Assembly: GCA_050303415.1 (NCBI GenBank)
Contig: JBNLBS010000019.1
Location: 16,545-80,544, forward strand
Direction of reading: 5' to 3'
DNA from: Methylococcaceae bacterium
GTDB taxonomy: Bacteria > Pseudomonadota > Gammaproteobacteria > Methylococcales > Methylomonadaceae
Length of the DNA stretch: 64,000 nucleotides
Shown here: positions 2,995 to 64,000 of the stretch, one piece after another
How the letters are laid out: every line of letters starts with the position of its first letter
Position numbering within the stretch: position 1 is the stretch's first letter
Translations under genes and position numbers: made by a program
Notes under the pieces: model-generated
Database searches by the model: none
Told to the model about the DNA's origin: nothing
What the model saw: the letters and a program-made list of their open reading frames with translations, nothing else

Positions 2995-5919
2995 TTAACC
3001 TAAACTGTCGATTATCGATTGAGCCACTTCTTTTTGTTTTTCATTCCCTTTCTCTAAAACTTCCCGGGCCATTGACTCAGCTGCTTCCTTATCATCCATT
3101 CCCAAATAGGCTCTTGCTAAATCAATCTTGGTTTCAAATTCATCCATGTCGGTTAGGTCAGTAACATTTTGCTCTGAACTCTGCTCTTGATTTTCAGTAT
3201 CAGGAAAATCAAGATCAAAATCGAAGTCGGATTCATCAATTGTCTTTTCCTCTTCAGCGTCAGATTCTTGTTCCAAGCCTTCCGGTAATTCAAGCGAATC
3301 TAATGAAATGCCTGACTCTTCTGTCTTCTCAAGAGTTCCTTCCTCCTCAAGAGGCAACTCAAAATCAAAATCTATTGATTCAATTTCTTCAGTATTTTCC
3401 GATGCAGCCTGTACTGAACTATCTGATGTATCAGCGACGTTTTCATTCGGCAAATCCAGTGAATCTAAATCAAAGTCCAGTGTCCGGTCTTCAGCTATTT
3501 CAGGCTTTTCCTTAGCCTCAACCTGCATATCGGAGTCCAAATCAAAGCTATCCAAATCAAAGTCTAACGTATGATTATCAATTTCCTGCACAGTCTCAGT
3601 CTCGGCCTTTATCTCAGTGACAGAGTCAGCCATAAAACTTTCTTCCGGTTCAGCTTCTGATGATTGCACCTCATCCTTCGGCTCATCAACAGCGGGTTCT
3701 TTTTCCAAATCCTCCGCCATAATATCTTCAACCGAATCATCTAAAGATAAATCAAAATCCAAAGCATCCAAGTCATCCGTATCCTCAAACTCTGACTGCT
3801 TTTCCTGTTCAAGATCATCATTTACCTGCTCAGCAGGGGATGCCTTTGCTTCTGTGTCGGAAGCTGCATTTTCAGCTGTCGTTCCAGCTTCGGACAAGCT
3901 TAACTCCGAATCAGGACTGAGTTCTTTTCTCATCTCCAACAACTTATCCCAAAAAGCACTGTCTTCCTGCTTTCCTTCGGCGGCCAGCTGATTACTATAC
4001 TCGTCAAACGCCTGCAAATTTTCATTGGCATAAAAAATTTCAAGCAATTTTAATTTGCATTCATCGCGCTCCGGCTGATCTATTATTGCCTGACGCATTA
4101 ATTCTTCAGCTTGTTGATACCGACCATAAGCTAAATAAACATCTGCTTCAGAGACGGGGTCCACTTCCGTTTGTTCGGTTTCAAAAGCATCAAAATCTGT
4201 TGCTGAAGAAAAATCGCTGATAAACGAACTTTCGCCAGTATTGCCGATATCATAACTGGCATTATCTTCCATAATAGGAACAGCCAGCGCTTCATCCGTA
4301 TTAGGCAGATTAATTTCAGACGTTGCAGCAAACATGCTTTCGCTATTGGTTTGCTCCTCAACTTTGCGCTTACGCCACCACAACACACCTAATCCGCCAA
4401 AAATTAGTGCCGCCCCCCCTGCAATAATCCATGTAAACAGTCCTATTCCCGAATCATCCGTTATAACTTCGGGTTTTGGTTTTACTCTTGTACGTACTTT
4501 TTCTTTTTTCGGTTCTTCGGATTTGATTACAGCGGGCTTGCTTGCCTCAGGAGTCGCTTCCGGTTTTTTTACTGTGGGTTTGGCTGCAGTAGCCGGTGCA
4601 GTAGTAGCTGTCGCTGTTGTTGATGCAACTTTTCCCTGGTCACCCTGTGTCTGCTGTGCTACTTGTTTTGAAGTTTCCTCTGCAACCTGATCCGGTTGAA
4701 TACTTGTCTGTGATTTTGCAACTGAATCGATTGACGCCTTCTCTTCTTCACTTACTGTTGCTTCCTTCGGCTGTGTTCTATTTTGTAATGCAGCTATCTG
4801 GGCATCTTTTAATGCCAACATTTTCTGCATCATCATCAGTTGCTGTTCCAGGCGCTCTAACTTAATTCTCAAACTAGCCGTTTCTTCAGTCTCAGCAGTT
4901 TTTGTTTCAACAGTCACTGCCGTTTCATCAACCTTAGCACCTTCATCACCCGGCACATCATCCGTCTCACCGGCGGCCAGAACAACATCTTCTGCAATAT
5001 CCTCTTCTGTTGGTGCAACTAACGTTAATTTACTGTCAATTTCCGGTTGTTTCTCCTCAGCAACTGGTTCAGACTTTTTCTCAGAAACCGGTTGTATCCG
5101 GCCCTGCCACACTTTATTTTGTCTGTTATACTCCGCCAACGCCTGCGTACGTGAAATTTTAATAATTTCATTCTTTTCAGGAACGTCTATAGAGGCATTT
5201 GCCATCAGGGCATTAATATTCTTCTTATAGAAAGCTTTCGGATTTGCCTCATATAAAGCAATAACCATCTGTTCCGTGGCAACATCATCATTATTATTGA
5301 CCCTTTCAGCCACTTTCCAAAGCGTATCGCCTTTATCAGCAGTTGTCGTCTTTACCTGTCCCTCTGTTGTCACGGCAGTCTGCTGCACTTCCTTAGCAGG
5401 AGCCTCCGGTGACTCCACCTGAAAGTCCTTAGTCACAGCCGCCGCTTTAGGTTCAGTTTTTTCAACAGCAGGTTTGGACGTTACGGTTACTGGCACCACA
5501 GTTTGCTGATAAGTAGCCGGTGGATCCACCAAAACTGTAAATTCACGATAAAGCCTGCCTTTAGGCCAGGTTACCTCCAGCATAAAATCAAGAAAGGGCT
5601 CTTTTAAAGCTTCTGATGATGTTAGCTTGATACTAATTGAACCATCTGCTCGAGCTATTTTTTCAAATTTAATTTTTGATAAAAAATAGTTCCAGGTAAT
5701 ACCGGCTTCGTCAAACTTATCAGGAGAAGCCAGTTTTACCTTAATATCATCAATATGCTCACCAACGGAAACTTCCAAACCGATCTCTGCATCGAGATTT
5801 TGATTAAGAGCCGAATGCAATTTTATATCGCCAATTCCCAATGGATACCCGCTCGCCGGAGCCAATAACGATACTAGCGCTATAGTCTTAGTTAAATTGC
5901 GCACTACATTCTCCTTCAC
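2995..5919 (-). CDS. fimV: FimV/HubP-like polar landmark protein (N-terminal periplasmic FimV domain with LysM, TM helix, very acidic repeat-rich cytoplasmic region, C-terminal TPR/FimV-C motif)
   Basis: N-terminus MKENVVRNLTKTIALVSLL...FTVLVDPP matches the FimV N-domain. LysM-like GDTLWKVAERV is present. D/E-rich low-complexity repeats follow a single TM (FGGLGVLWWRKRK). Conserved asd-leuB neighbours, as in Pseudomonas and Vibrio. Confidence 0.8.
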   Translation of the reverse strand: MKENVVRNLTKTIALVSLLAPASGYPLGIGDIKLHSALNQNLDAEIGLEVSVGEHIDDIKVKLASPDKFDEAGITWNYFLSKIKFEKIARADGSISIKLTSSEALKEPFLDFMLEVTWPKGRLYREFTVLVDPPATYQQTVVPVTVTSKPAVEKTEPKAAAVTKDFQVESPEAPAKEVQQTAVTTEGQVKTTTADKGDTLWKVAERVNNNDDVATEQMVIALYEANPKAFYKKNINALMANASIDVPEKNEIIKISRTQALAEYNRQNKVWQGRIQPVSEKKSEPVAEEKQPEIDSKLTLVAPTEEDIAEDVVLAAGETDDVPGDEGAKVDETAVTVETKTAETEETASLRIKLERLEQQLMMMQKMLALKDAQIAALQNRTQPKEATVSEEEKASIDSVAKSQTSIQPDQVAEETSKQVAQQTQGDQGKVASTTATATTAPATAAKPTVKKPEATPEASKPAVIKSEEPKKEKVRTRVKPKPEVITDDSGIGLFTWIIAGGAALIFGGLGVLWWRKRKVEEQTNSESMFAATSEINLPNTDEALAVPIMEDNASYDIGNTGESSFISDFSSATDFDAFETEQTEVDPVSEADVYLAYGRYQQAEELMRQAIIDQPERDECKLKLLEIFYANENLQAFDEYSNQLAAEGKQEDSAFWDKLLEMRKELSPDSELSLSEAGTTAENAASDTEAKASPAEQVNDDLEQEKQSEFEDTDDLDALDFDLSLDDSVEDIMAEDLEKEPAVDEPKDEVQSSEAEPEESFMADSVTEIKAETETVQEIDNHTLDFDLDSFDLDSDMQVEAKEKPEIAEDRTLDFDLDSLDLPNENVADTSDSSVQAASENTEEIESIDFDFELPLEEEGTLEKTEESGISLDSLELPEGLEQESDAEEEKTIDESDFDFDLDFPDTENQEQSSEQNVTDLTDMDEFETKIDLARAYLGMDDKEAAESMAREVLEKGNEKQKEVAQSIIDSLG

Positions 5920-5973
5920 ACAAATTCGCCATACTCTCTATCTATAACAATAAAATATACAACTAAGCTTAGC

Positions 5974-6996
5974 CTAGATGTAATTTTTTACTAGTTCTTC
6001 GGCAATTTGAACGCTATTTAATGCCGCTCCTTTACGAACATTATCTCCAACCACCCATAAATCAATACCTTTTGGATGTGAAATATCTTCGCGAATCCGG
6101 CCAACAAAAACATCATCATTCCCTGAAGACTCGGTAACAGCCGTTGGATATCCGCCATCTTTATGCTCATCCATTACCGTTACACCAGGCGCGTTAATTA
6201 ATAAATTGCGCACACTGTCTGCATCAATTTTATTTCGTGTTTCAATATGCACAGCTTCAGAGTGACCATAAAAAACCGGCACCCTAACCGCAGTAGGGTT
6301 GACATTGATAGTTTCATCACCCAGAATTTTGCGCGTCTCCCAAACCATTTTCATTTCTTCTTTGGTATAGCCATTGTCCATAAACACATCAATTTGCGGC
6401 AATACATTAAAAGCAATCTGCTTTGGATAAACTTTTGCTTCAATTGGCTTACCATTCAAAAGCCTAGAGGTTTGTTGAACAACCTCCTCTATACCTTGCT
6501 TCCCCGTACCGGAAACCGCCTGATAAGTACAAACATTGATTCGCTCAATACCCACCGCATCATAAATCGGTTTTAATGCCACTAACATTTGAATTGTGGA
6601 ACAATTCGGGTTGGCAATAATCCCTCTCGTCGTGTATTCAGCAACTTTATCCGGGTTAACCTCAGGGACCACCAGGGGAATATCATCGTCATAACGAAAT
6701 TGTGAGGTGTTATCAATCACCACACAACCTGCTGCCGCAGCTTTAGGAGCATATTCAGCAGAAATGGACGCGCCGGCAGAAAACAATCCGATTTGAACTT
6801 TGGAAAAATCAAATTCGGCCAAATCCTGAACCGTTAAACTGCCGCCATTAAAGGCTATTTTCTTTCCCACCGAACGACTACTGGCCAGGGCATATACCTC
6901 ACCGACTGGAAATTTACGTTCTTCCAGTATTGACAACATGGCTTCACCAACCGCACCGGTTGCACCGACAACGGCAACATTATATTTTTTACTCAT
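5974..6996 (-). CDS. asd: Aspartate-semialdehyde dehydrogenase
   Basis: [21 protein letters not shown]-binding motif, 340 aa, active-site Cys region. Confidence 0.92.
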   Translation of the reverse strand: MSKKYNVAVVGATGAVGEAMLSILEERKFPVGEVYALASSRSVGKKIAFNGGSLTVQDLAEFDFSKVQIGLFSAGASISAEYAPKAAAAGCVVIDNTSQFRYDDDIPLVVPEVNPDKVAEYTTRGIIANPNCSTIQMLVALKPIYDAVGIERINVCTYQAVSGTGKQGIEEVVQQTSRLLNGKPIEAKVYPKQIAFNVLPQIDVFMDNGYTKEEMKMVWETRKILGDETINVNPTAVRVPVFYGHSEAVHIETRNKIDADSVRNLLINAPGVTVMDEHKDGGYPTAVTESSGNDDVFVGRIREDISHPKGIDLWVVGDNVRKGAALNSVQIAEELVKNYI

Positions 6997-33530: not shown

Positions 33531-33603
33531 CTCGAGGATAGCTCAATGGGTAGAGCGGTTGACTCATAATCAACTTGTTAAGGGTTCAAGTCCCTTTCTT
33601 CGA
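33531..33603 (+). tRNA. tRNA-Met (anticodon CAT)
   Basis: Manual cloverleaf folds in full: 7-bp acceptor TCGAGGA/TCTTCGA with one G-U pair, D-arm GCTC-AATGGGTA-GAGC, anticodon stem GTTGA/TCAAC with loop CTCATAA, T-arm AAGGG-TTCAAGT-CCCTT. CCA is not encoded. Confidence 0.7.
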
Positions 33604-33606
33604 TCC

Positions 33607-33674
33607 TGGAAAAGTAGCTCTTGGTGAGCCCGGATGATAAATCCGTTTATGTAGGTTCGAATCCTACCTTTTCA
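33607..33674 (+). other. Degenerate tRNA-like element: intact acceptor, T-arm GTAGG-TTCGAAT-CCTAC, but D-loop and anticodon loop only 5 nt each; 3 nt downstream of tRNA-Met
   Basis: Manual folding: GGAAAAG...CTTTTCA acceptor with 1-72 mismatch, D GCTC-TTGGT-GAGC, AC-stem CGGAT-GATAA-ATCCG; 68 nt, too short for a canonical tRNA. Confidence 0.35.
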
Positions 33675-34005
33675 CTTTTAACCTGCAACACAGGTTTATT
33701 TTGATCTTCGGATCGTAGGGTCGGCGCCAGTCGGCGAATATGGAGTTTGTTTGACAAAGGATGTTGGAGACAACGGCGTATTGGCTTTGCATGGTGTCAG
33801 CCGGATAAAGTTCAGAACAGTTTATTGATACAGGTCCATTCGATGGGCGCGCTTGACAGGATGTCCACATCAGCAAACAGGTCTTTACTTTTTCCGCCAG
33901 ACAACATCCGCCAATAGGTCGTGGCGCCGAACCTAAATTTTTACCAATAAGGATTTAAACAATAATACTGCCTTAAAAGGCAACAAAAAGGGAATGGAGG
34001 GAACA

Positions 34006-54778: not shown

Positions 54779-56137
54779 TCAGCATGGAATAACAACTCCG
54801 GCATCTTTCATTCTGGCAATTTTATAGCGCAAAGTCCTTGGGCTGATACCTAATTTTTCTGCTGTCGATTTACGGCTGCCTTTTTCCTCATTCAAAGTTT
54901 GTAAAATAATTTTTTCCTCTGCTGAACGAATACCGTCACCTAAACTGGAAACTGAATCCTGCTCTTGTTTTTCAAAAACTTGGCTATCATCTGAGATTTT
55001 ATCCGTCAAAACAAAAGGCATATCATCCAAAATCAGGTCGTCGACTGTTATTTCGGATCCTGAAGACAAAATCAGCGCTCTTTGAACAACATTTTCCAAC
55101 TCGCGCACATTTCCCGGCCAGCTATAAGCTCGCATTTTTTCGACCGCATCCGCTGAAAAAACAGGGCGCTTTTGACCATTAGAACAATGCCTCTGCATCA
55201 ATTCCATTGCCAGTGGCAAAATATCATCAACCCGCTCTCGTAGAGCCGGTATACGCATAGGAAAAACATTTAAGCGATAATACAAATCTTCCCTAAACAA
55301 GCCATTATCAACTTGCTGTTTTAATTGCTGATTCGTTGCCGCCAAAATTCTGACATTTAATTTTATTTTTTTCTGGCTACCAATGCGCTCCACTTCTTTT
55401 TCCTGAAGCACACGTAACAGTTTAGCTTGTAATGCTAAATCCATTTCGGCAATCTCATCCAAAAACAAAGTACCCCCCTGAGCTTGTTCAAACTTGCCGG
55501 CCATCGATTGCACGGCACCGGTAAAGGCGCCTTTTTCATAACCAAATAACATGGCTTCCAGCATATTTTCAGGAATAGCTGCACAATTTACCGCGACAAA
55601 AGGTCCTTGATATTTGGAGTTGTGATGAATAAATTGGGCAAAAACTTCTTTACCAACACCGCTTTCACCCTGTAAAAACACCGCCACATCAGTTTTAGCC
55701 ACCTTTGCCGCCAGGGTATACAGTTTTTTCATACTATTATCATGAACCACCCTGTCATTAGCCGCACTTGGTTTAGCGGTCACATAATCATTCACCTTTG
55801 AAACCAGCGCACTGGCCTCAAAAGGCTTAATCAAATAATCGCTGGCGCCTGACTGCATCGCCTTTACCGCTTTGGACACTGTGCCATATGCTGTCATCAA
55901 CACCACCGGCGTTTCGCTGTATTGATTTTTAATGTTATACAATAACTGAAAGCCATCCATCACCGGCATTTGTACATCACTAATGACTATTTTAAATTTG
56001 TCTTTTGCCAGACAGGACATTGCTTCTGTTCCATTATTAGCCGAAATAACCCGATAACCTTCAATTTCCAAGGTATCGCACAATGCTTCGCACAAGGCTA
56101 TATCATCCTCAACAACTAACACATCATACTGATTCAT
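54779..56137 (-). CDS. fleR: Sigma-54-dependent two-component response regulator FleR/FlrC
   Basis: Receiver (LVVEDD..D53 region), AAA+ GESGVGKE, GAFTGA motif, C-terminal Fis HTH. Confidence 0.8.
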   Translation of the reverse strand: MNQYDVLVVEDDIALCEALCDTLEIEGYRVISANNGTEAMSCLAKDKFKIVISDVQMPVMDGFQLLYNIKNQYSETPVVLMTAYGTVSKAVKAMQSGASDYLIKPFEASALVSKVNDYVTAKPSAANDRVVHDNSMKKLYTLAAKVAKTDVAVFLQGESGVGKEVFAQFIHHNSKYQGPFVAVNCAAIPENMLEAMLFGYEKGAFTGAVQSMAGKFEQAQGGTLFLDEIAEMDLALQAKLLRVLQEKEVERIGSQKKIKLNVRILAATNQQLKQQVDNGLFREDLYYRLNVFPMRIPALRERVDDILPLAMELMQRHCSNGQKRPVFSADAVEKMRAYSWPGNVRELENVVQRALILSSGSEITVDDLILDDMPFVLTDKISDDSQVFEKQEQDSVSSLGDGIRSAEEKIILQTLNEEKGSRKSTAEKLGISPRTLRYKIARMKDAGVVIPC

Positions 56138-57371
56138 GAGTCACCTCTTGTTCGATCAGGCTTTTACCGGAAAACCCTCCCGGCAAGAAAGAGAATTTAT
56201 TGTTCTTATTCGGCAGGGATAAGGTAAAAGCCGTCCCCTTTCCGGGTTCCGAATCACAACGAATGATGCCGTTGTGGGCTCGAATAACATTCTCAACTAC
56301 CGCCAGGCCAAGACCGGTACCCTGTGATTTGGTAGTATAAAACGGTTCAAAAATTCGTTCACATTGGGCATTATTAATACCCGGACCATTATCAGAAATA
56401 ACGATGTCAATATTTTGTCCTGTCTGCTTTACCTTCATTTCTATTACTCCGGCTGAATCGGCCAAAGCCTCAACAGCATTGGTCAAAATATTCATTAAAG
56501 CACCCCGCAAGGCATTTTCATTACCTTGAAATTCGTCTTCAGCCAAACAACTTTGTAACCTGAAATTAATTGCTGATCCGACAAGGTCTTCCGCCATGTT
56601 TTCTTTTATCCGTTCAAATAAACCGGTCAAGGAAAAAGCCGTCATGGACAAACGGCCTTCCTTGGCAAACACCAGCATATCACTGACTTGTCTCTCCAAA
56701 TGCTGTAAACGTTCCAGAATTTTTTTCGAATAACGTTGACGTTTACCCTCATTTAATGCGGGATTACTCATTTGAGATGCATAGAGAATAGCGGTGGATA
56801 ACGGAGTTCTTACCTGGTGCGCCATACTGGCTACCATTTCACCCATTGAGGATAAATGCTTCTGCTGATTGACCATATCCTGTAAAGCATGCATTTCAGT
56901 GACATCAGATAATAAAATAACCTGTTCAGAATGCCCGGCCAATTGACTGCTGGTCAAACTGACCCGCTGACCATTTTTTAACTGCCTTTCATGCGGACTG
57001 TTAGATACAGACATCAAGCTGCGTTCAACTACTTGCTCCCAGGGTAAACCGATTAAAGGCTCTGCCAAATACTCCACGGCAATGGCATTACAATCCAACA
57101 CCTGTGAATGCGCATTTAAAATAACCACCGCCGCAGGTAAAGCGGCCATAATTTCCTGCAAACGATTGGCTATTTTCTCTTTCTCAACCAGTGTATTAAT
57201 ACGTTCTGTTCGTGCAGCAGAGAGCTCTTGGTGTAATTTGGCGACCTGTGCTTCCAGGCCTTGATAGGACTGGGTCAGGTTTTGAGATAACTGATTAAAG
57301 ATGCGAAACGCATCGGTCAGTTGTTCGGTCTTATGATTGTGCTGATGATCTAATGTACTCATTTTGCTCAT
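56124..57371 (-). CDS. fleS: Sensor histidine kinase FleS/FlrB (PAS + HisKA + HATPase)
   Basis: H-box MAHQVRTPL, G-boxes GTGLGL, soluble PAS-containing N-terminus; overlaps fleR start. Confidence 0.75.
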   Translation of the reverse strand: MSKMSTLDHQHNHKTEQLTDAFRIFNQLSQNLTQSYQGLEAQVAKLHQELSAARTERINTLVEKEKIANRLQEIMAALPAAVVILNAHSQVLDCNAIAVEYLAEPLIGLPWEQVVERSLMSVSNSPHERQLKNGQRVSLTSSQLAGHSEQVILLSDVTEMHALQDMVNQQKHLSSMGEMVASMAHQVRTPLSTAILYASQMSNPALNEGKRQRYSKKILERLQHLERQVSDMLVFAKEGRLSMTAFSLTGLFERIKENMAEDLVGSAINFRLQSCLAEDEFQGNENALRGALMNILTNAVEALADSAGVIEMKVKQTGQNIDIVISDNGPGINNAQCERIFEPFYTTKSQGTGLGLAVVENVIRAHNGIIRCDSEPGKGTAFTLSLPNKNNKFSFLPGGFSGKSLIEQEVTHESV

Positions 57372-57625
57372 TTCACTTTAAACAGATGTTTTTGTGAAAA
57401 AAGCAATTTTCAGGCCAAGACAATAAAATCAGACTAGGCAAACCTTCTGAATCCTGTATAAGAATGTCTTAAAACCGGAATATTCTTACCTCCATACCGG
57501 CCATTCCCACTCACTCCATATCCCAACGATCAATGTACCAGGAATCACGCAGTGATTTTGCCAGCACCCTTATTTATAAAGAAATTTAACGATAATTCCA
57601 ACCGTCAAAATAATGACATCTCCAA

Positions 57626-59062
57626 TTAACGATTTAAATCCAATTTTCGCATTTTCTCAACCAAGGTAGTACGTCCCATATTTAATCGCTTGGCGGCATG
57701 TGCGACTACACCATTACACTCAGCCAAGGCCTGTTTTATCAGCACACTTTCCATATCATTCAGATATTCTTTTAAATCGATACCCTGTTCCGGTATACCC
57801 GGTATAACGGAAGTAACCGTAACAGGAGCCTCCATTTCTGCCTCTGTCTGATTAATTTCAGGCTCTGGTTCATCCCGGTCAATTTTAAAATCCTCAGGAA
57901 CCACATAATTCTGAAATTTTTCCGGTAAATCTATGCAGTCAACCACGCCTTTGGGATTAATAATTGCCAAGCGTTCCACCAGGTTTGCCAGTTCCCTGAC
58001 ATTACCCGGCCAATTGTGCTGCATTAATAGCGCCAACGCATTATCGGTCAGCCTCACTGAACCACGATTTGCTGCTTCCATTCTGGCAATCAAATCCTTT
58101 ACCAGCAATGGAATATCTTCGGTACGCTCTCTTAAGGCAGGCATTTCAATAGGAAATACATTTAACCGGTAGAACAAATCCTCTCTAAAGCGGTTTGCAT
58201 TGATCTCATCTTCAAGATGCCTATGCGTGGCGGCAATAATGCGTACATCACAGTCAATTGTTTTATTACTGCCCACCCGTTCAAAAGTTCTTTCCTGCAG
58301 CACCCGGAGTAACTTCACCTGCATTGCCATAGGCATATCACCAATTTCATCCAGAAACAGCGTTCCACCCTCTGCCATCTCAAACCGCCCCTGCCGAGAA
58401 GTTAAGGCTCCGGTAAATGCACCTTTTTCATGCCCGAATAATTCACTTTCCAGTAATTCACCTGGAATCGCACCGCAATTAACCGGCACAAAAGGTTTGC
58501 TTCTCCGAGTTGATGAATCATGTAAAGATCTGGCCACAACCTCTTTACCGGTACCGGACTCACCCAGTATCAATACTGTGGCGTCCGACTCGGCAACCTG
58601 CTCGATCAATTGACATACTTGAGAAATCCCCTGGCTCTTACCCTTCAATTTCTGCCGGGCAATTGATGGTTTTGAGAATGCTTGAACAACCGTAGAAGTT
58701 TTTTCAGGTACTGGGATTTTTGCCATAAATGACTGCAAAACAGGATATGTTAAGGGCCATTCCAAAATACTTGATACGGTGTTATTTATCGCACTGGGTA
58801 CTTTTAGCGCTGTTCCCTTATCTATCAGTAAAACCAAAGGGATGTCACCAACCTGAGCCGATATATTTTTAATAATGGCGGCTTGTTTTTCCATCCCACT
58901 GCCGATAAATACAACGGACACGTCAGAAATATCGTTTAATCTGTCTTCATAATTTTCAGAATCACTTTGTTCTACAGAATATTCCATGAACTGGAAAATT
59001 GTTTCAAATTGCGATGACCTGAGTTTGCTATCATCAATTAACAAAATACCTGGCAATGCCAT
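57626..59062 (-). CDS. fleQ: Sigma-54-dependent master flagellar regulator FleQ/FlrA
   Basis: Atypical receiver-like FleQ N-domain, AAA+ sigma-54 activation domain ([14 protein letters not shown]), Fis HTH. Confidence 0.8.
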
Positions 59063-59368
59063 ATTATTTAACTCATCCGATAATTATGAAGTAAAACTAG
59101 ACGCTAAACTTAATTCAACCTTGTAATTAAGTAAAGTGACTGAATCCCAAAAAGAACCTTAACATTTAAATTTGCTTAAATTCCAGCTGGTCATCCTACA
59201 ATTAAACATAAAGTTAAGCATCGATTATAAAGCCTGTCAAAAATTCTTTTATATCAACTTGTTCAGACAGTTTCTTAATTCATTTTAATACCATTCGCCA
59301 GCAACATTATAGCTTAGATACTTGACAAATTTTTCTCATCATAGAAACTAGGGTTGTTTTAATAACTA

Positions 59369-60628
59369 TTGAGTACCCCTTCGTTGAACGATATTCCCCT
59401 TAGTATGCTATTTGGCATACTTGCATTAATGCTAGTACTGTCTGCTTTTTTTTCCGGCTCTGAAACTGCATTAATGTCTCTAAACCGCTATCGCCTGCAA
59501 CACTTAGTCAAGAAAAAGCATGCTGGAGCTATTAGGGCAAACCGCTTATTAAAAAGACCGGATCGCTTGATTGGTCTTATTTTATTAGGTAATAATTTTG
59601 TTAATGTCCTGGCTTCGGCATTAACCACTATCATAGCAATGCGTATTGCCGGAGAATCAGGTATTGCTATCGGCGCCCTGTTATTAACCCTGATCATTCT
59701 TATTTTCTCCGAAGTCACACCTAAAACGCTGGCGGCCATAAAACCAGAAGTGCTTGCTTTTCCTGCGGCCCGGATATATGGGCCGTTACTCAAACTTTTA
59801 TACCCTTTTGTCTGGCTGGTTAACTTATTTACCAATTTATTACTTAGAATTATCGGTATCAACGCCAGCAAACACCAGGAAGACACACTAAGTAAAGAGG
59901 AGTTAAAAACTGTGGTTTCAGAGGCGGGTAATTTAATGCCTACTCGTTATCAAAACATGCTGTTGGGTATTTTAGATCTAGAATCTGCGACGGTGGAAGA
60001 CATAATGACTCCACGCAATGAAATCAAAGGCATTAATCTTGACGACTCGATTGAAGATATTATCGATCAAATTCAGCGCAGCAATTTAACACGTTTACCC
60101 GTTTATAGAAAAAGCATTGATCGCGTTATCGGATTTCTGCACTTAAGGCGCGTGCTGATTCTTATCAATAAGGATAAATTAGATAAACAACATATTGTCA
60201 GTAGCTTAATTAAGCCTTTTTTCATTCCTGAAAATACGCCTTTACACCAACAGATGCAAAATTTTAAAGCTGAAAAGCAACGGATCGGTTTAGTCGTTGA
60301 TGAATATGGCGACGTACAGGGACTGGTCAGCATGGAAGATCTGTTACAGGAAATAGTCGGTGGTTTAACTGTAGAAAAAAACCATATAAGAAAACAGACA
60401 GATGGCAGTTTTCTGGTCGATGGCAGTGTAACTGTTAGAGAGCTTAACCGGGAAACCAATTGGTCCTTACCAACAGAAGGTCCAAAAACCATTAACGGCC
60501 TGATTATTGATGTAATGGAAACCATCCCCGAACCGGGAACCAGCGTCAGACTCTACGGTTATCCTTTGGAAATCATCAAGCGTGATAAAAACACCATTAA
60601 ACTGGTCAGGTTTCACCCGCAGACCTAA
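59369..60628 (+). CDS. CNNM/CorC-HlyC family transporter (DUF21 membrane domain + CBS pair + CorC_HlyC)
   Basis: FFSGSETALMSLNR DUF21 signature, CBS pair, C-terminal transporter-associated domain. Confidence 0.75.
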   Translation: MSTPSLNDIPLSMLFGILALMLVLSAFFSGSETALMSLNRYRLQHLVKKKHAGAIRANRLLKRPDRLIGLILLGNNFVNVLASALTTIIAMRIAGESGIAIGALLLTLIILIFSEVTPKTLAAIKPEVLAFPAARIYGPLLKLLYPFVWLVNLFTNLLLRIIGINASKHQEDTLSKEELKTVVSEAGNLMPTRYQNMLLGILDLESATVEDIMTPRNEIKGINLDDSIEDIIDQIQRSNLTRLPVYRKSIDRVIGFLHLRRVLILINKDKLDKQHIVSSLIKPFFIPENTPLHQQMQNFKAEKQRIGLVVDEYGDVQGLVSMEDLLQEIVGGLTVEKNHIRKQTDGSFLVDGSVTVRELNRETNWSLPTEGPKTINGLIIDVMETIPEPGTSVRLYGYPLEIIKRDKNTIKLVRFHPQT

Positions 60629-60745
60629 GTACAATAATGCCGATAAAGAAATCGGTAATTGTTCGCGAAATTATGTTTTTTTTTAAGCACAAAAAACAAA
60701 CCGGACTATACTTAGTTTCTGTGGACGGGGTGATAAAAACAAATA

Positions 60746-61369
60746 ATGGCTAAATTTACTGTTTTTTTTAAAGATAAGGCAATCCAATCAGATTTGATTG
60801 ATAGTGGTGTTGCGCATATTGGTCGAGATGAAACCAATGATATAACTGTCGATAGTTTGGCAGTAGCGCCTGCGCACGCGGCTGTCATCATTAACGATCA
60901 GGAATGTATTATTAAACAGCTTAACGATGATTATCCATTGATCATCAATGGCGAAGAAACTAAATCCTGTACATTACAGGATAATGACAAAATAACCATT
61001 GGAAAACACTACATAATATTCAATACCGCCGAGTCATTTGTTGATGAGGAAATCCGACAGCCCGAACAGGAAGAAGATAGTTTCCATCTTGAAACGGAAC
61101 ACTCTTTGCCGGAAGGTAATTTGCAAATTATGAATGGCAAACATATCGGTAGAATTTTACCGCTAAAAAAAGTCATGACTAAACTTGGTCATAAAGGCAG
61201 CGGTGTTATTGTTATAGCAAAAAGAAAAGAAGGTTATTTTGTATCTGCGTTGGAGAACAATGCATCCTTGGCTATTAACAAAACGCCGTTAGGCGATACC
61301 ACTGTTAAATTGAACAATAATGATATTATTGTGGTTGACAACGCTACAATGCAGTTTTTTCAGGATTAA
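60746..61369 (+). CDS. Protein with two FHA-like domains
   Basis: HIGRDETNDITVDS...SRAHA-like APAHAAVI...INGEE...DKITIGKH pattern, repeated in C-terminal half. Confidence 0.4.
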   Translation: MAKFTVFFKDKAIQSDLIDSGVAHIGRDETNDITVDSLAVAPAHAAVIINDQECIIKQLNDDYPLIINGEETKSCTLQDNDKITIGKHYIIFNTAESFVDEEIRQPEQEEDSFHLETEHSLPEGNLQIMNGKHIGRILPLKKVMTKLGHKGSGVIVIAKRKEGYFVSALENNASLAINKTPLGDTTVKLNNNDIIVVDNATMQFFQD

Positions 61370-61375
61370 TTCAGC

Positions 61376-61744
61376 ATGACCATTGAAAAAAAAGATCATC
61401 AGCGACATTTTCATCGCATTCTTTATCATGCCAATGCAAAGTTAAGTTCACAACAACAAATCTGGGACTGCGAAATTCTGGACTTGTCTTTAAAAGGCTG
61501 TCTGCTGAAATTTGAAAATACCTGGCATGAAGACCCGGATCAAAACTATACCTTAACTCTTGAGCTATCTGTGGATGCAAAAATACAAATGACACTGTCT
61601 GTATCACATGCCATAGACAATAAAGTCGGATTCAAATGTGAACATATAGATATCGACAGCATCTCACAGTTACGCAGACTGGTCGAATTAAACCTGGGCG
61701 ATAGCGAAATACTTGAAAGAGATTTACTGGCTTTAGCCGAATAA
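61376..61744 (+). CDS. PilZ-domain c-di-GMP receptor
   Basis: RxxxR (QRHFHR) and DxSxxG (DLSLKG) motifs. Confidence 0.7.
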   Translation: MTIEKKDHQRHFHRILYHANAKLSSQQQIWDCEILDLSLKGCLLKFENTWHEDPDQNYTLTLELSVDAKIQMTLSVSHAIDNKVGFKCEHIDIDSISQLRRLVELNLGDSEILERDLLALAE

Positions 61745-62003: not shown

Positions 62004-62100
62004 TTACTCTATTTCCTGACTGCGCAAGTAATCTTCATAATTACCCCTAAAATCGACAATACCGGAGGGTGTCAGCTCCAGCATACGGGTGGCCAGCAAG
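62004..62100 (-). pseudogene. 3'-terminal remnant of an ABC-F (YbiT/Uup-like) ATPase gene (encodes ...[31 protein letters not shown]) with no upstream body
   Basis: In-frame translation of minus strand; resemblance to ABC-F C-termini is from memory; rest of gene absent. Confidence 0.35.
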
Positions 62101-62231
62101 AATCAAGGGGGCCTGATTTTAAATTGTGGTGATTTAAATTAATCAGATTCTTGCGATGCCTTATTACCTAGTAAAAGTGTTGCACTTGGAACTTGAATTC
62201 ACCTAAACTAGGGGAGCTTCATTTTGACCCC

Positions 62232-62741
62232 CTATTTTTCGGGTTCCTTCTTACGTGCTGACCTAGTAGAAATGAAAGCAGATAATAATTCATCATCTGA
62301 AGCTAAACTAATTCTGCTTTTCCTTTCAAGATACTTGCCTTTAGGTCTGGCTTCAATAGAAATAAACCCAGACATTTCTTTGGCTTTTATACTTATTTCT
62401 TTAGATGGATATTTATGTATAGAATCATCATCGGAAAAAGATGGCAAGAGCCCCCAAAATTTATAGATTTGGAAATTATCAGATAGCTTTTCAATAGTTA
62501 TTTGACTAATTAATCCGCAACCATTTGGCAAACGTGCATTGAGCAAAGGCCAATATAATTCTGATATACCTTCAAACACAATCCAAGCACGACGGAGTGG
62601 AGCATCAGCAGCTTCAGAAACTGGAACATCAAGATCTAAAACAAGACACCAAGGTATTAAGTCCCAGCGCAAGGCTAACAATCTAGCGTCAATAGTTAAT
62701 TTTTTTGTTTTCTCTTGATCAAGTTCAGTAATGTTTTTCAA
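62232..62741 (-). CDS. Hypothetical 169-aa protein; candidate immunity protein of the adjacent orphan Rhs toxin tip
   Basis: No recognised motif; position downstream of Rhs-CT (separated by inserted transposase). Confidence 0.35.
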   Translation of the reverse strand: MKNITELDQEKTKKLTIDARLLALRWDLIPWCLVLDLDVPVSEAADAPLRRAWIVFEGISELYWPLLNARLPNGCGLISQITIEKLSDNFQIYKFWGLLPSFSDDDSIHKYPSKEISIKAKEMSGFISIEARPKGKYLERKSRISLASDDELLSAFISTRSARKKEPEK

Positions 62742-62786
62742 TGTATCCTCTACATTATCTTTTCATCGGTGGAGCAGGTTTTGCTA

Positions 62787-63607
62787 GTCCTGATTGAAGG
62801 GGTCAGCCAACTTGATTTTTATAGTTTTCACTTTTTCTATCTCCTCCATGTGATGTAAGCTTTGTTGTTCTTGAAATTAACTGACTGATTTTATGGTGAA
62901 ACTCACTACTACCATAAACTTCGCCTCGTATAGTTGCTTCCGTAATTTGTTGGTCTTGTGATTTGCTACTTGGAGTATTAAATATTTTCTGATAATTCGC
63001 TGTCCGGCTCGCTACACTTTCGCCCAAACTCCTATATAACTCATGTTCCGTAATTAAACTATTTTCTTCGCCTAATGCATTATGTCGATAACTCGACCAT
63101 GGATAATCAGCCATTTTCTTAACCATATTCGCTTTGACAGGATTCATTTCAATATAGCGATAGAGACTAAAAAGGTAATTTTCACTGTCAATTAAACATG
63201 ACTTAAACCGACCTTCCCAGATAGTGCCTGTTCTATTTCGGGTGGCATTAAAATAACGAACATATCGATTAGCCATTGTTTGCATAAACTGACTCAGCTG
63301 TGTTTTTTCAGCAGGCGTGATTAGCAAATGTAAATGATTGGTCATGATGACATAAGCATGTAGAGAACAGCTTGATTTGGCTAGGGCATAGGCTATATCT
63401 TCTTTGATGCGAATCATATCCTCTTCAGATTCAAAGATATCCTGTCTATTATTTCCACGGTGCATAATATGCAACGGTTGATTGGGAACAACAATTCGGG
63501 GTAATCTGGCCATTTATGAACTTTAGTAAACCTTTGTCTCCAAATCAAGTTGGCTGACCCCTTGATTTCTTTGTCTCCAAATCAAGTTGGCTGACCCCTT
63601 GATTTTT
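62787..63607 (-). mobile_element. RAYT/IS200-like unit: Y1 (HUH) transposase gene flanked by inverted REP-like hairpin repeats, one copy on the left and a tandem doublet on the right
   Basis: Left flank GATTGAAGGGGTCAGCCAACTTGATTT (62791-62820). Right flank carries 2 copies of TTTGTCTCCAAATCAAGTTGGCTGACCCCTTGATTT (63534-63607). Each forms an AAATCAAG/CTTGATTT stem. Confidence 0.7.
62803..63513 (-). CDS. IS200/IS605-family Y1 tyrosine transposase (REP-associated tyrosine transposase-like), extended C-terminus
   Basis: HUH motif HLHLLI, catalytic Tyr region (NYLFSLYRYIEMNPVKA), 236 aa; stop codon lies inside the left hairpin repeat. Confidence 0.8.
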   Translation of the reverse strand: MARLPRIVVPNQPLHIMHRGNNRQDIFESEEDMIRIKEDIAYALAKSSCSLHAYVIMTNHLHLLITPAEKTQLSQFMQTMANRYVRYFNATRNRTGTIWEGRFKSCLIDSENYLFSLYRYIEMNPVKANMVKKMADYPWSSYRHNALGEENSLITEHELYRSLGESVASRTANYQKIFNTPSSKSQDQQITEATIRGEVYGSSEFHHKISQLISRTTKLTSHGGDRKSENYKNQVG

Positions 63608-63932
63608 GTTGTTCAATTATGTAACTTCCCGTTGGTAATGGTCCATGATCCTGAACATCAGTATGATCAGGGTTATTTTGGCAATCCTTACATGAGGAAC
63701 TTTGGTTATTTCCTGCTGTGTATTCATTGCTAGAAAAATAGGGGTTCTTAGGATCGTTCGGTGTACAACTCATAAAATGCAGGCTTATTGAATAATAGCA
63801 ATAATATAAGCCTGATGGGTCCACTATTTTCATCGGATTCCCCCCAACATAAGCATAAGTATTAAGACCACCGACTAGGTCGATAGGATCACTGGTAATA
63901 TACCTCCCTTGTTCAGGATCATATGTAGTGGT
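63582..63932 (-). CDS. Orphan Rhs/YD-repeat C-terminal toxin fragment (end of RHS core [41 protein letters not shown] followed by ~70-aa Cys-rich variable tip); no N-terminal body, in-frame stop at 63933-63935
   Basis: Manual minus-strand translation of 63834-63932 extends the listed ORF upstream through the canonical Rhs core terminus and PxxxxDPxGL demarcation; upstream frames lack YD repeats. Confidence 0.6.
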
Positions 63933-64000
63933 TTAATAGCACCGGACACTTTAATGAGAGACAATACACGTCAAACATTAAGGTATCAAAATGGGACAGA

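Follow-up and report, generated by a model that had tools for sequence, protein, structure and literature searches.

The window (the whole 64-kb stretch of DNA that was analysed; its source contig finishes 64 nt beyond it) carries near its right-hand end an intact gene for a Y1 HUH tyrosine transposase of 236 aa (62803–63513, minus strand), flanked by inverted repeats and lying among Rhs toxin and immunity sequences. The ORF matches Pfam Y1_Tnp (E 2.3e-14) and the NCBIfam model REP_Tyr_transpos (86.1 bits, above the cut-off of 80), which bears out the RAYT-like Y1 HUH identity proposed in an earlier, sequence-only reading of this DNA. Its motifs are N-H-L-H-L for HUH, W-E (within IWEGRF) and Y-I-E-M-N-P for the tyrosine (residues 120–125, with Y, I, E, N and P unvarying in 26 homologues), and the catalytic residues show no variation across the same homologues. 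An AF2 model (pLDDT 82) had E. coli TnpA-REP (4ER8) as its top PDB fold match (E 9e-8), followed by the TnpA proteins of IS608 and ISDra2, while phmmer against 4ER8 aligned the HUH and Y motifs and placed YIEMNP opposite YIYINP. Beyond this core, a C-terminal extension comprises confidently modelled helices (residues 140–212) and a disordered tail (215–236) with an unvarying HGGDRKS; a search of the extension for Pfam HTH families returned none at E values up to 1.

By length, motifs and its GGGGTCAG-bearing repeats, the predicted protein fits TnpA-Y1 subclass 2.1 (Quentin et al. 2018, PMC6006769), the second-largest TnpA-Y1 group, which corresponds to the TIRYT proteins of TIRtrons (Di Nocera et al. 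2013, PMC3733652) and to Group 1 of the RAYTs (Bertels et al. 2017, PMC5581495). Table 1 of PMC6006769 lists for this subclass a median length of 238 aa and the motifs NH[VYF]H, W[EQ] and YIELNP, and for class 2 the tyrosine motif Y-x-x-x-N-P (YIELNP or Y[IV]HLNP), the form that YIEMNP takes here. As TIRYTs are described in these sources, the likeness covers one Y1 HUH gene encoding ~238 aa, its Y-I-E-x-N-P and W-E motifs, the extension at its C terminus, inverted repeats containing GGGGWSAS, one of them overlapping the 3′ end of the gene, and a low copy number with patchy taxonomy that is consistent with horizontal transfer. Two details differ: the hydrophobic HUH residue is L, which PMC6006769 lists among class 2 residues, whereas the subclass 2.1 consensus is V, Y or F, and no DnaA-C or HTH Pfam domain was detected in the tail, whereas the ~238-aa subclass 2.1 proteins are tabulated with an HTH-like C-terminal extension (Bac_DnaA_C, HTH_23 or HTH_28). 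The element itself is an ordinary member of a known transposase class. Its closest homologue (91% identical) lies in another, housekeeping context with one intact repeat on each side, and within the source assembly the exact protein is on one contig only. Plasmid homologues were all below 46% identity, and a search of viral contigs found none bearing the repeat. Many homologue-bearing contigs are ~1 kb long or stop just 5′ of the transposase gene.

On the 5′ side of the gene, repeat search and folding identified two exact tandem units of 37 nt (63532–63605, plus strand; 63532–63568 and 63569–63605), each consisting of 10 nt of local sequence, CTTTGTCTCC, and the palindromic core AAATCAAGTTGGCTGACCCCTTGATT(T). 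The outer end of this doublet (…CCCCTTGATTT) points toward the truncated toxin described below. A partial inverted copy lies at the 3′ end of the gene (62792–62818, minus strand): AAGGGGTCAGCCAACTTGATTT occurs at 62797–62818 and its reverse complement twice, at 63542–63563 and 63579–63600, so that the left copy is either 22 nt and perfect (62797–62818) or 27 nt with three mismatches, all in the outer arm. In shuffled sequence, 0 such matches were expected, and the window contains only these three copies, all beside the transposase gene. As had been proposed, the left copy overlaps the end of the transposase ORF, encoding its last residues and stop codon (…NQVG*; stop at 62803–62805), and the same overlap of gene and repeat is present at the 3′ end in homologous loci. 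The complementary strand of the right units reads GGGGTCAG, in agreement with the TIRYT motif GGGGWSAS as it is given in PMC3733652, and terminal inverted repeats sharing this motif are found at both flanks of the gene.

The repeats had been described as 36-nt hairpins; their inverted arrangement and the tandem doublet on the right hold, but the unit conserved across genomes is ~26 nt, the other 10 nt being local sequence that was co-duplicated, and the left copy is not a complete hairpin-forming unit. That copy finishes after CCCCTT (…GACCCCTT) and therefore lacks the outer stem arm; it folds no better than shuffled sequences (−1.4/−0.9 kcal/mol, z +0.4/+0.9). Each right copy can pair into an 8-bp stem, AAATCAAG/CTTGATTT, that is weak and AT-rich (−5.9/−6.3 kcal/mol, z −3.2), and a GTAG or GTGG foot was looked for beside the stem and was absent.

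A 20-mer of the repeat was then scanned against a genome collection that excludes the source genome, which gave 89 exact copies spread over 72 stretches of DNA; these come from a wide range of beta- and gammaproteobacterial genomes, including Methylophaga, Methyloprofundus, Methylomonas, Methylophilaceae, Nitrosomonas and Pseudocolwellia. Exact-core copies number 1–9 per genome (1–3 in five complete chromosomes), and these counts indicate a low-copy family rather than a classic high-copy REP family. Conservation extends to the outer-arm G-A-T, which lay outside the search pattern and is kept in 85, 80 and 75 of 87 copies; the flanking sequence is random. The stem is invariant between copies, which precluded a covariation test of the hairpin. 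The repeat flanks transposase homologues that are 61–75% identical, in the same inverted arrangement as in the window, and also occurs as solo copies, with no transposase gene within 8 kb at 45 of the 72 loci; some of these are REPIN-like inverted pairs 30–50 nt apart (L043, L054, L056 and L022). A further property is a one-sided "stutter": in the other genomes, exact tandem duplications are present at the outer end of 20 of 84 copies and at the inner end of 1 of 84. The outer-end duplications have a period of 7–23 nt, are often nested, start inside the repeat and finish 0–8 nt past …CCCCTTGA(T)(T). Such one-sided nested duplications are not mentioned in the sections on these elements in the published TIRYT accounts (PMC3733652, PMC6006769 and PMC5581495). 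Quentin et al. (PMC6006769) found no REP-like structures beside subclass 2.1 genes, in contrast to the short palindrome seen here, with its dispersed solo copies and clusters.

In Rhs arrays, a variable toxin and then a small immunity gene come after the end of the core (…DPSGL). To the right of the transposase lies a fragment of such an Rhs gene (63582–63926, minus strand; from translation, TIGR03696 and Tlde1_dom), which encodes the last 40 residues of the core (YDPEQGRY…DPSGL; positions 37–76 of 76 in the TIGR03696 Rhs_assc_core profile) and then the first ~66 residues of a Tlde1-type domain, which we take to have an L,D-transpeptidase fold (compare the Tlde1/Tldi1 T6SS effectors). The reading frame enters the repeat and terminates there (…IIEQQ|KSRGQPT*). 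Only positions 10–41 of the 120 in the Tlde1_dom profile are matched (23.1 bits, cut-off 30.1), and the Tlde1 domain after the DPxGL motif is thus incomplete. Homologues with Tlde1 matches above the cut-off (P0141–P0149, 48–65% identical) run 67–71 residues longer, and the toxin is thereby short of ~70 C-terminal residues that include the conserved HGC motif. A word-index protein search for an intact allele returned only the window's own 83-aa product, a metagenome scan gave 308 pattern matches and no tblastn-confirmed relative, and the toxin fragment had no match among PDB sequences. Exhaustive HMMER searching was the sole route to homologues (≤65% identity), and the right-hand junction rests on these more distant proteins because no intact Tlde1 allele was found in a close relative. 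The Rhs tip is truncated at both ends: on its other side the core is interrupted by the left end and orfA start of an IS3-family element (MGQKRTYKQYSKEFKGEAVNLVLE…; 63928–64000, plus strand), recognised by HTH_Tnp_1 (E 0.013 over 25 residues) and by 79% identity (E 1e-20) to a DNA sequence that carries the annotation "IS3 family transposase".

To the left of the transposase, by contrast, a nearly identical uninterrupted allele is available. The contig L082 matches window positions 62208–62796 at 584 of 589 nt (99%) and encodes a whole second Rhs toxin upstream, of which the window retains the last 13 codons and the stop (QSGLAKPAPPMKR*; 62755–62796, minus strand). The homology begins at 62796, adjoining the repeat at 62797–62818. 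Comparison with uninterrupted relatives, which had been suggested as a check, thus yielded an intact second toxin in L082 but no close-relative intact allele of the Tlde1 toxin. Downstream of the residual codons, a 169-aa ORF (62232–62741, minus strand) is intact. It has no Pfam or NCBIfam match, yet its 19 homologues align with 20 invariant columns, and members of the family lie directly 3′ of Rhs toxin genes in L075, L076 and L077 (10 nt), L080 and L081 (0 nt) and L082 (13 nt). It is therefore reasonable to call it a candidate immunity gene, apparently orphaned, and from gene order in these alleles the second toxin is its predicted cognate partner. More distant cognate toxins finish …APPRGR* or …PPPPKNR*. 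The cognate toxin domain matches no Pfam family above cut-off, the sole hit being a weak Ntox10 match (E 5e-4, below cut-off) located upstream of the actual toxin region. Past the Rhs core, the two toxins are not related to each other, and the toxins beside homologues of the 169-aa ORF are unrelated to the Tlde1 domain.

Further left lie the last 31 codons of a gene for a ybiT-like ABC-F ATPase (62004–62096, minus strand; blastn and ORF), with 76% identity to E. coli ybiT over these positions and a weak ABC_tran_Xtn match; the remainder of the gene is absent. This fragment adjoins the outer end of a tentative, degenerate repeat-like remnant (62100–62120, minus strand, reading AAAATCAGGCCCCCTTGATTC), an inverted match that folds weakly and resembles the GGCCTGACCCCTTGATTC repeat beside a second transposase gene in L082. 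The ybiT homology begins at 62096, 3–4 nt from …CCCCTTGATTC. A composite element with the immunity gene as cargo and outward-facing repeat ends at 63605 and ~62100 was considered and not adopted: its distal end is no more than a degenerate remnant, damage affects the internal repeat, and in L082 the immunity gene is in its native toxin context, with the homology finishing 95 nt before the remnant.

Taken together, the locus is probably a TIRtron, that is, one Y1 HUH gene with inverted ~26-nt GGGGTCAG repeats, at a deletion scar in a decaying Rhs array. Judged from the alignments above, the leading part of one Rhs toxin gene lies on one side of this apparent scar, and the terminal codons and immunity gene of a different toxin lie on the other; the element is not cleanly inserted. 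Since the outer flanks of the repeats come from different modules, the arrangement calls for one or more deletions, or for an unequal exchange with its endpoint at the repeats. Lost in this way would be the 3′ end of the first toxin, presumably the immunity gene of that toxin, and nearly all of the second toxin, leaving two dead toxins and one orphan immunity gene; the ybiT gene, ending at the degenerate remnant, would be a third truncation. If the enzyme works as E. coli TnpA-REP and IS608 TnpA do, it would bind the repeat folded into a small hairpin on a single strand, and would cut and rejoin one strand beside it via a 5′-phosphotyrosine intermediate. We infer that these repeats, as single-stranded hairpins, would be the substrate of catalysis, and that the deletions may be the work of the enzyme and not of general recombination. 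Points against the assignment are the L in the HUH motif, the absence of a Pfam HTH match in the extension, the weakness of the hairpin and the report of Quentin et al. that REP-like structures are missing beside subclass 2.1 genes. The biochemistry described in PMC8266576 covers groups 2 and 3 only.

It is possible, though we hold it only tentatively, that the junctions and duplications at repeat ends are natural footprints of an active subclass 2.1 enzyme. The 37-nt doublet and the three gene truncations would then be products of one process, in which the enzyme nicks at a constant position immediately beyond the hairpin and rejoins to non-equivalent sites on a sister copy, so that one product would gain duplications and the other would suffer deletions next to the repeat. 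If so, these elements would rearrange or inactivate the genes beside them, in this case Rhs toxin cassettes; the site of cleavage would be readable from genome data alone, and the 26-nt repeat, which is identical across bacterial classes while protein identity falls to ~61%, would be a tightly constrained substrate.

The alternative that survives best, although we think it rather unlikely, is that the element is a passive bystander or relic, and that ordinary processes, without the transposase, account for the truncations and for the 37-nt doublet: homologous recombination between Rhs core repeats or dispersed copies, IS3 activity, or slippage at the palindrome. Rhs arrays rearrange by recombination, an IS3-family element is present within the same locus, and slippage can produce tandem duplications. 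The left repeat is moreover damaged and unable to fold, and the unit may therefore no longer be mobile. Against this, the three independent truncation points (63607, 62796 and 62096) all lie within a few nt of the outer end of a repeat, the gene is intact with conserved catalytic residues, and symmetric slippage at a palindrome would not predict a bias of the kind seen between outer-end and inner-end duplications.

A domesticated REP/RAYT system is improbable. Under this explanation, a vertically inherited single-copy RAYT would maintain a large population of REP doublets (REPINs) with a host function, and the locus would be its home REPtron. The name of the NCBIfam model (REP-associated tyrosine transposase), the inverted palindromic repeats on both sides of the gene and the many loci lacking a nearby transposase, some with REPIN-like pairs, all speak for it. 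However, the handful of exact-core copies per genome compares poorly with the 57–140 copies associated with Group 2 and Group 3 RAYTs in the figures given in PMC5581495, the GTAG/GTGG foot is missing from a weak, AT-rich stem, and the few copies in the window are all at the gene. The same repeat is also found with 61–75% identical proteins across Beta-, Gamma- and Zetaproteobacteria, which fits horizontal spread and not lineage-specific coevolution. Rhs sequence lies near the repeat at only 1 of the 72 other loci, which rules out a general tie of the repeat to Rhs loci. Domestication at a polymorphic-toxin locus and disruption by a mobile element had both been offered; disruption fits better.

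A related known system is the E. coli REPtron (TnpA-REP/RAYT; subclass 2.2, Group 2). The fold and catalytic motifs of 4ER8 and the inverted palindromic repeats beside the gene are shared, and so, probably, is the chemistry of single-strand cleavage beside a hairpin. In contrast to E. coli, there is neither a GTAG foot nor a bulged GC-rich stem here, genomic copies are few rather than hundreds, and the protein is 70 aa longer and ~16% identical by structural alignment.

It is very improbable that the locus carries a conventional IS200/IS605 element that moves as a unit, with distinct left- and right-end hairpins on one strand. The Pfam Y1_Tnp match, the resemblance to the Y1 HUH core fold of IS608 and ISDra2 TnpA, and homologue contigs that are often ~1 kb or end just 5′ of the gene, as those of repeated elements often do, are points in its favour; the family also shares ends defined by small hairpins and not by long terminal inverted repeats. 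Nevertheless, the NCBIfam IS200 model NF033573 scores 19.3 bits (cut-off 55), the tyrosine motif is Y…NP and not the Y…Q of Table 1 in PMC6006769, tnpB is absent, the protein, at 236 aa including its C-terminal extension, exceeds the ~150 aa typical of IS200 transposases, and its exact sequence occurs on a single contig of the source assembly. The sequence-only reading would have given way to this explanation had the repeat been confined to the locus with IS200/IS605-type left and right ends; instead, the repeat occurs in 72 other stretches and the ends are inverted copies of one repeat. Least credible of all is that the element simply inserted itself between a complete Rhs toxin tip and the immunity gene belonging to it, as had originally been read from the order of Rhs tip, element and immunity-family ORF on one strand and as the position of the 169-aa family after Rhs genes elsewhere might suggest: the longer Tlde1 homologues and the L082 allele refute it, since the Tlde1 toxin is truncated, the codons upstream of the 169-aa ORF belong to a different toxin that is intact in L082 and is the predicted partner of the ORF, and toxins beside homologues of the ORF are unrelated to Tlde1.

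As regards annotation, the gene should be labelled a TIR/REP-associated Y1 tyrosine transposase and not IS200, the neighbouring 83-aa "gene" a dead toxin fragment, and the 169-aa ORF an orphan immunity gene. For Rhs biology, the locus offers a concrete, allele-supported case of how an immunity gene comes to be an orphan, its toxin having been lost in a deletion that reaches a transposase-associated repeat. Orphan immunity genes remain after toxin loss in Rhs arrays, and the locus resembles such arrays in its core end, variable toxin and persisting small immunity gene; it departs from the usual arrays in that neither toxin survives and the breakpoints coincide with transposase-associated repeats instead of Rhs core homology, and from known Rhs pairs in that neither the 169-aa family nor its cognate toxin domain matches a Pfam family above cut-off. 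For research on HUH enzymes, a 26-nt palindrome that is invariant across many genera is an unusually well-defined candidate substrate, and its natural end-specific duplications suggest where the DNA may be cut. None of these points alters the classification of the element as ordinary.

The surroundings of the locus add minor observations. Searching the other contexts of the PilZ neighbour for an "empty" locus returned only the same genome and sample, and Rfam gave nothing at the locus, its only matches being two tRNAs at 33.5 kb. A compositional island was rejected as the GC difference (36–39% at the locus versus ~40–43% nearby) is not distinctive. The toxin/immunity array adjoins flagellar regulators.

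The transposase gene is an intact ORF encoding 236 aa on the minus strand (62803-63513), and its product matches Pfam Y1_Tnp (E 2.3e-14) and the NCBIfam equivalog 'REP-associated tyrosine transposase' (86.1 bits, cut-off 80). Alignment with E. coli TnpA-REP (PDB 4ER8) using phmmer placed HLHLL over HMHCI and YIEMNPVK over YIYINPVK. 4ER8 was also the best PDB match (E 9e-8) for an AlphaFold model built from an alignment of 26 homologues (pLDDT 82), followed by the IS608, ISDra2 and IS200 transposases. The protein carries NHLH, WE and YIEMNP motifs, where L is the hydrophobic residue of the HUH motif, and a helical C-terminal extension in which a Pfam search found no HTH match. Its tail (residues 215-236, window 62803-62880) is predicted to be disordered (pLDDT below 50), a C-terminal HGGDRKS motif is invariant across the 26 homologues, and the terminal repeat supplies the last four codons. 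The family comprises 2058 proteins at E up to 1e-20, the 120 best of which are almost without exception about 236 aa in length; homologues on plasmids stay below 46% identity. The nearest relative (91%) lies beside the TauE, DUF502 and LpxC housekeeping genes with a single intact repeat on each side, while an 83% relative occupies a different context again, with decayed repeats.

Two exact tandem 37-nt units (63532-63568 and 63569-63605) lie 5' of the gene, and an inverted copy with 22 perfectly matching nt (62797-62818) lies 3' of it, overlapping the stop codon; the complementary strand of the repeat reads GGGGTCAG. Shuffled sequence gave zero comparable matches, and the 64-kb window holds three copies, all at the transposase gene. 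As single-stranded DNA, the right-hand units are predicted to form an 8-bp AT-rich stem (AAATCAAG/CTTGATTT, -5.9 to -6.3 kcal/mol, z about -3.2). The flanking repeats proposed in the sequence-only reading are therefore real, but the left one is a damaged partial copy rather than a hairpin: it stops after …GACCCCTT, has no outer arm, and its predicted fold is no more stable than those of shuffles.

Di Nocera et al. 2013 (PMC3733652) describe 'TIRtrons' as RAYT-like genes between terminal inverted repeats, many of which share GGGGWSAS. TnpA-Y1 subclass 2.1, as set out in Table 1 of Quentin et al. 2018 (PMC6006769), has a median length of 238 aa, the HuH motif NH[VYF]H, W[EQ], the tyrosine motif YIELNP and a C-terminal extension; its members are low in copy number and patchily distributed. 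It equals Bertels' Group 1, and the paper treats it as identical with the TIRYTs that Di Nocera et al. described. On the basis of its 236-aa length, its NHLH, WE and YIEMNP motifs and the GGGGTCAG repeat, we file the element by sequence as a TIRtron of subclass 2.1, although its HUH residue is L where the published profile has V, Y or F. It is a real feature of this already known kind. Assignment to IS200/IS605 was rejected because the ends are inverted, the Y…NP motif is present, TnpB is absent and the IS200 model scored 19.3 bits, below its cut-off of 55. A classic REP/RAYT system was also rejected, since there is no GTAG foot, the stem is weak and copy number is low; according to Bertels et al. 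(PMC5581495), Groups 2 and 3 have 57-140 copies, versus about 12 for Group 1.

The DNA on the two sides of the element comes from different toxins. Beyond the tandem units, an Rhs fragment (63926 to 63582, minus strand) begins just past a stop codon and comprises the last 40 core residues (profile positions 37-76 of 76) to DPSGL, followed by about 66 residues matching Tlde1 profile positions 10-41 of 120; this reading frame then enters the repeat and stops (…GSYIIEQQ/KSRGQPT-stop). An exhaustive HMMER search with the fragment returned 110 homologues, the best of which (48-65% identical) range from orphan fragments to a 1413-aa Rhs protein. Because Pfam scores a full Tlde1 domain above its cut-off in these, and they are 67-71 residues longer, conserved HGC motif included, the toxin in the window is, by comparison, truncated. 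An IS3-family end with the start of orfA (63928-64000, plus strand; HTH_Tnp_1, E 0.013 on 25 residues) interrupts the Rhs core-coding region. This DNA continues in the stretch L001 (1-64) and shares 79% identity with a region bearing an IS3 family transposase annotation; the rest of the rhs gene, if any, is out of view because the source contig, JBNLEW010000056.1 (GCA_050305215.1), ends 64 nt past the window.

On the opposite side, thirteen codons and a stop (QSGLAKPAPPMKR; 62796 to 62755, minus strand) are the last part of a second toxin gene and are not in frame with the 169-aa ORF that follows (62741 to 62232, minus strand). The latter has no match in Pfam or NCBIfam and 19 homologues, and in five independent contigs an Rhs gene or an orphan Rhs C-terminal ORF precedes the homologue at a distance of 0-10 nt. 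The toxins that precede these homologues end in …APPRGR or …PPPPKNR at the stop codon; outside the Rhs core they are not related to Tlde1. The decisive comparison comes from L082, a 1259-bp contig from a separate sequencing run that is identical to window 62208-62796 at 584 of 589 positions. Upstream of the immunity gene, L082 encodes a complete toxin ending …DIQNIQSGLAKPAPPMKR before the stop, and its homology to the window starts at 62796, the base adjoining repeat 62797-62818.

Toxins of this second kind share a conserved C-terminal region, RFIVDxxGxxVDxxxTPxGS…GGRTDILQ…HGAGxxHTH[DN]P… (L080 2450-3340, L075 ~5300-5991 and L082 2-526), on which Pfam gave no family above cut-off, the sole match being a weak Ntox10 hit upstream. 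Together with the 169-aa family, this domain may constitute an undescribed Rhs toxin/immunity pair. In L082 the immunity gene is followed (1074-1259) by a further GGGGTCAG-type repeat (GAATCAAGGGGTCAGGCC) and then by the beginning of another, different Y1 transposase gene (MARPLRIEFAGALYHITSRGN…) that, about 22 codons in, is broken by one more GGGGTCAG-like sequence; there is therefore a second such element at the same toxin module.

The sequence-only reading had the element inserted between an Rhs toxin tip and its candidate immunity gene. The anatomy it described was mostly right, but a clean insertion between partners does not hold: the outer DNA belongs to two different toxin/immunity modules, both toxins are cut, and L082 pairs the 169-aa ORF with the other toxin, with homology running up to the repeat edge. 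Both cuts lie at, or a few nucleotides from, repeat ends. Judged from these junctions, the region must have gone through one or more deletions or unequal exchanges with an endpoint at the repeats. Lost in this way were the last 70 codons of the Tlde1 toxin, presumably the immunity gene belonging to it, and the whole of the next toxin except 13 codons. By sequence, both toxins are now dead and one immunity gene survives intact as an orphan. A ybiT-like ABC-F fragment nearby (62004-62096, minus strand) is, on alignment, a third gene truncation at a repeat-like end: its 93 nt, comprising 31 codons of the 3' end, are 76% identical to the E. coli ybiT 3' end and lie 3-4 nt off the outer end of a degenerate repeat-like remnant (62100-62120, AAAATCAGGCCCCCTTGATTC in minus-strand reading), and the remainder of the gene is absent.

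A scan of 185,579 representative genomes for exact matches to the 20-mer ATCAAGTTGGCTGACCCCTT gave 89 copies in 72 stretches, from genomes that include Methylophaga, Methyloprofundus, Methylomonas, other Methylococcales, Methylophilaceae, Methylotenera, Nitrosomonas, Nitrincola, Pseudocolwellia and 'Poriferihabitaceae'; none of the viral contigs searched carries one. Aligned on this core, the copies share a conserved unit of ~26 nt (AAATCAAGTTGGCTGACCCCTTGATT) with random sequence on both sides, and the outer-arm G, A and T, which lie outside the search pattern, are kept in 85, 80 and 75 of 87 copies. At about 20 loci the repeats flank a homologue of the transposase (61-75% identity) in inverted orientation with …CCCCTTGAT ends outward, as in the window, and the 3' copy encodes the final residues and stop (…NQVG-stop). 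A further ~45 have no transposase gene within 8 kb; such solo repeats are sometimes clustered or form inverted pairs 30-50 nt apart. Exact copies are scarce within any one genome: M. lonarensis has nine, several MAGs have 3-4, and five complete chromosomes carry 1-3. The repeat is a very strongly conserved candidate substrate of the transposase. Its location in an Rhs array appears incidental: just one of the 72 other repeat-carrying loci has Rhs sequence nearby.

Exact tandem duplications of period 7-23 nt, in two or three copies and often nested with each progressively shorter, occur in 20 of 84 repeat copies of other genomes (stretches L003-L074). They all begin within the repeat and extend to a point 0-8 nt past the outer …CCCCTTGA(T)(T); examples past …CCCCTTGAT(T) are found at L017 672, L025 1071, L027 6750, L014 4188, L034 1960 and L013 6303-6360. 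The equivalent test on the inner side found one in 84. Such one-sidedness suggests that breakage or joining happens at a fixed position immediately outside the putative hairpin. Whole-unit doublets that take in a few inner nucleotides (L007, L039, L068 and L064) resemble the 37-nt doublet of the window (63532-63605), which may be another case of the one-sided duplication. The available parts of PMC6006769, PMC3733652 and PMC5581495 do not mention one-sided duplications. TnpA-REP and IS608 TnpA act on single-stranded DNA, where they bind a hairpin and cut and rejoin beside it via a phosphotyrosine intermediate (PMC8266576), and by analogy we infer a similar mechanism for the window transposase, in which cutting and rejoining at non-equivalent sites would yield adjacent deletions and duplications. 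That ordinary recombination or slippage made these rearrangements is rather unlikely, though a real minority prospect. The locus is of value for its allele-supported deletion scar, the very strongly conserved candidate substrate and the one-sided end duplications.

In several genomes, pieces of the transposase gene adjoin repeats, either its N-terminal 17-62 codons or partial copies in tandem (L017 ~630-700, L035 657-782, L063 6168-6412, L029 6901-7998 and L061 2326-2641), which suggests frequent internal deletions or rearrangements of such units. Contigs carrying close homologues (L084, L085, L086, L087, L088 and L002) often break off 50-250 nt 5' of the gene or measure only ~1 kb, and L002 starts inside the repeat doublet; this looks like assembly breakage at the repeats. 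In the wider neighbourhood, two adjacent tRNA genes (33532-33675) are the only Rfam matches at the gathering threshold in the 64-kb window. The stretch 54779-61744 is a flagellar regulatory cluster with genes for a FleQ-like protein, a HisKA sensor kinase and a sigma-54 response regulator and, after these, CNNM/CorC, FHA and PilZ genes; FliE and FliF are just outside it, below 54779. The decayed toxin array begins directly after the PilZ gene.
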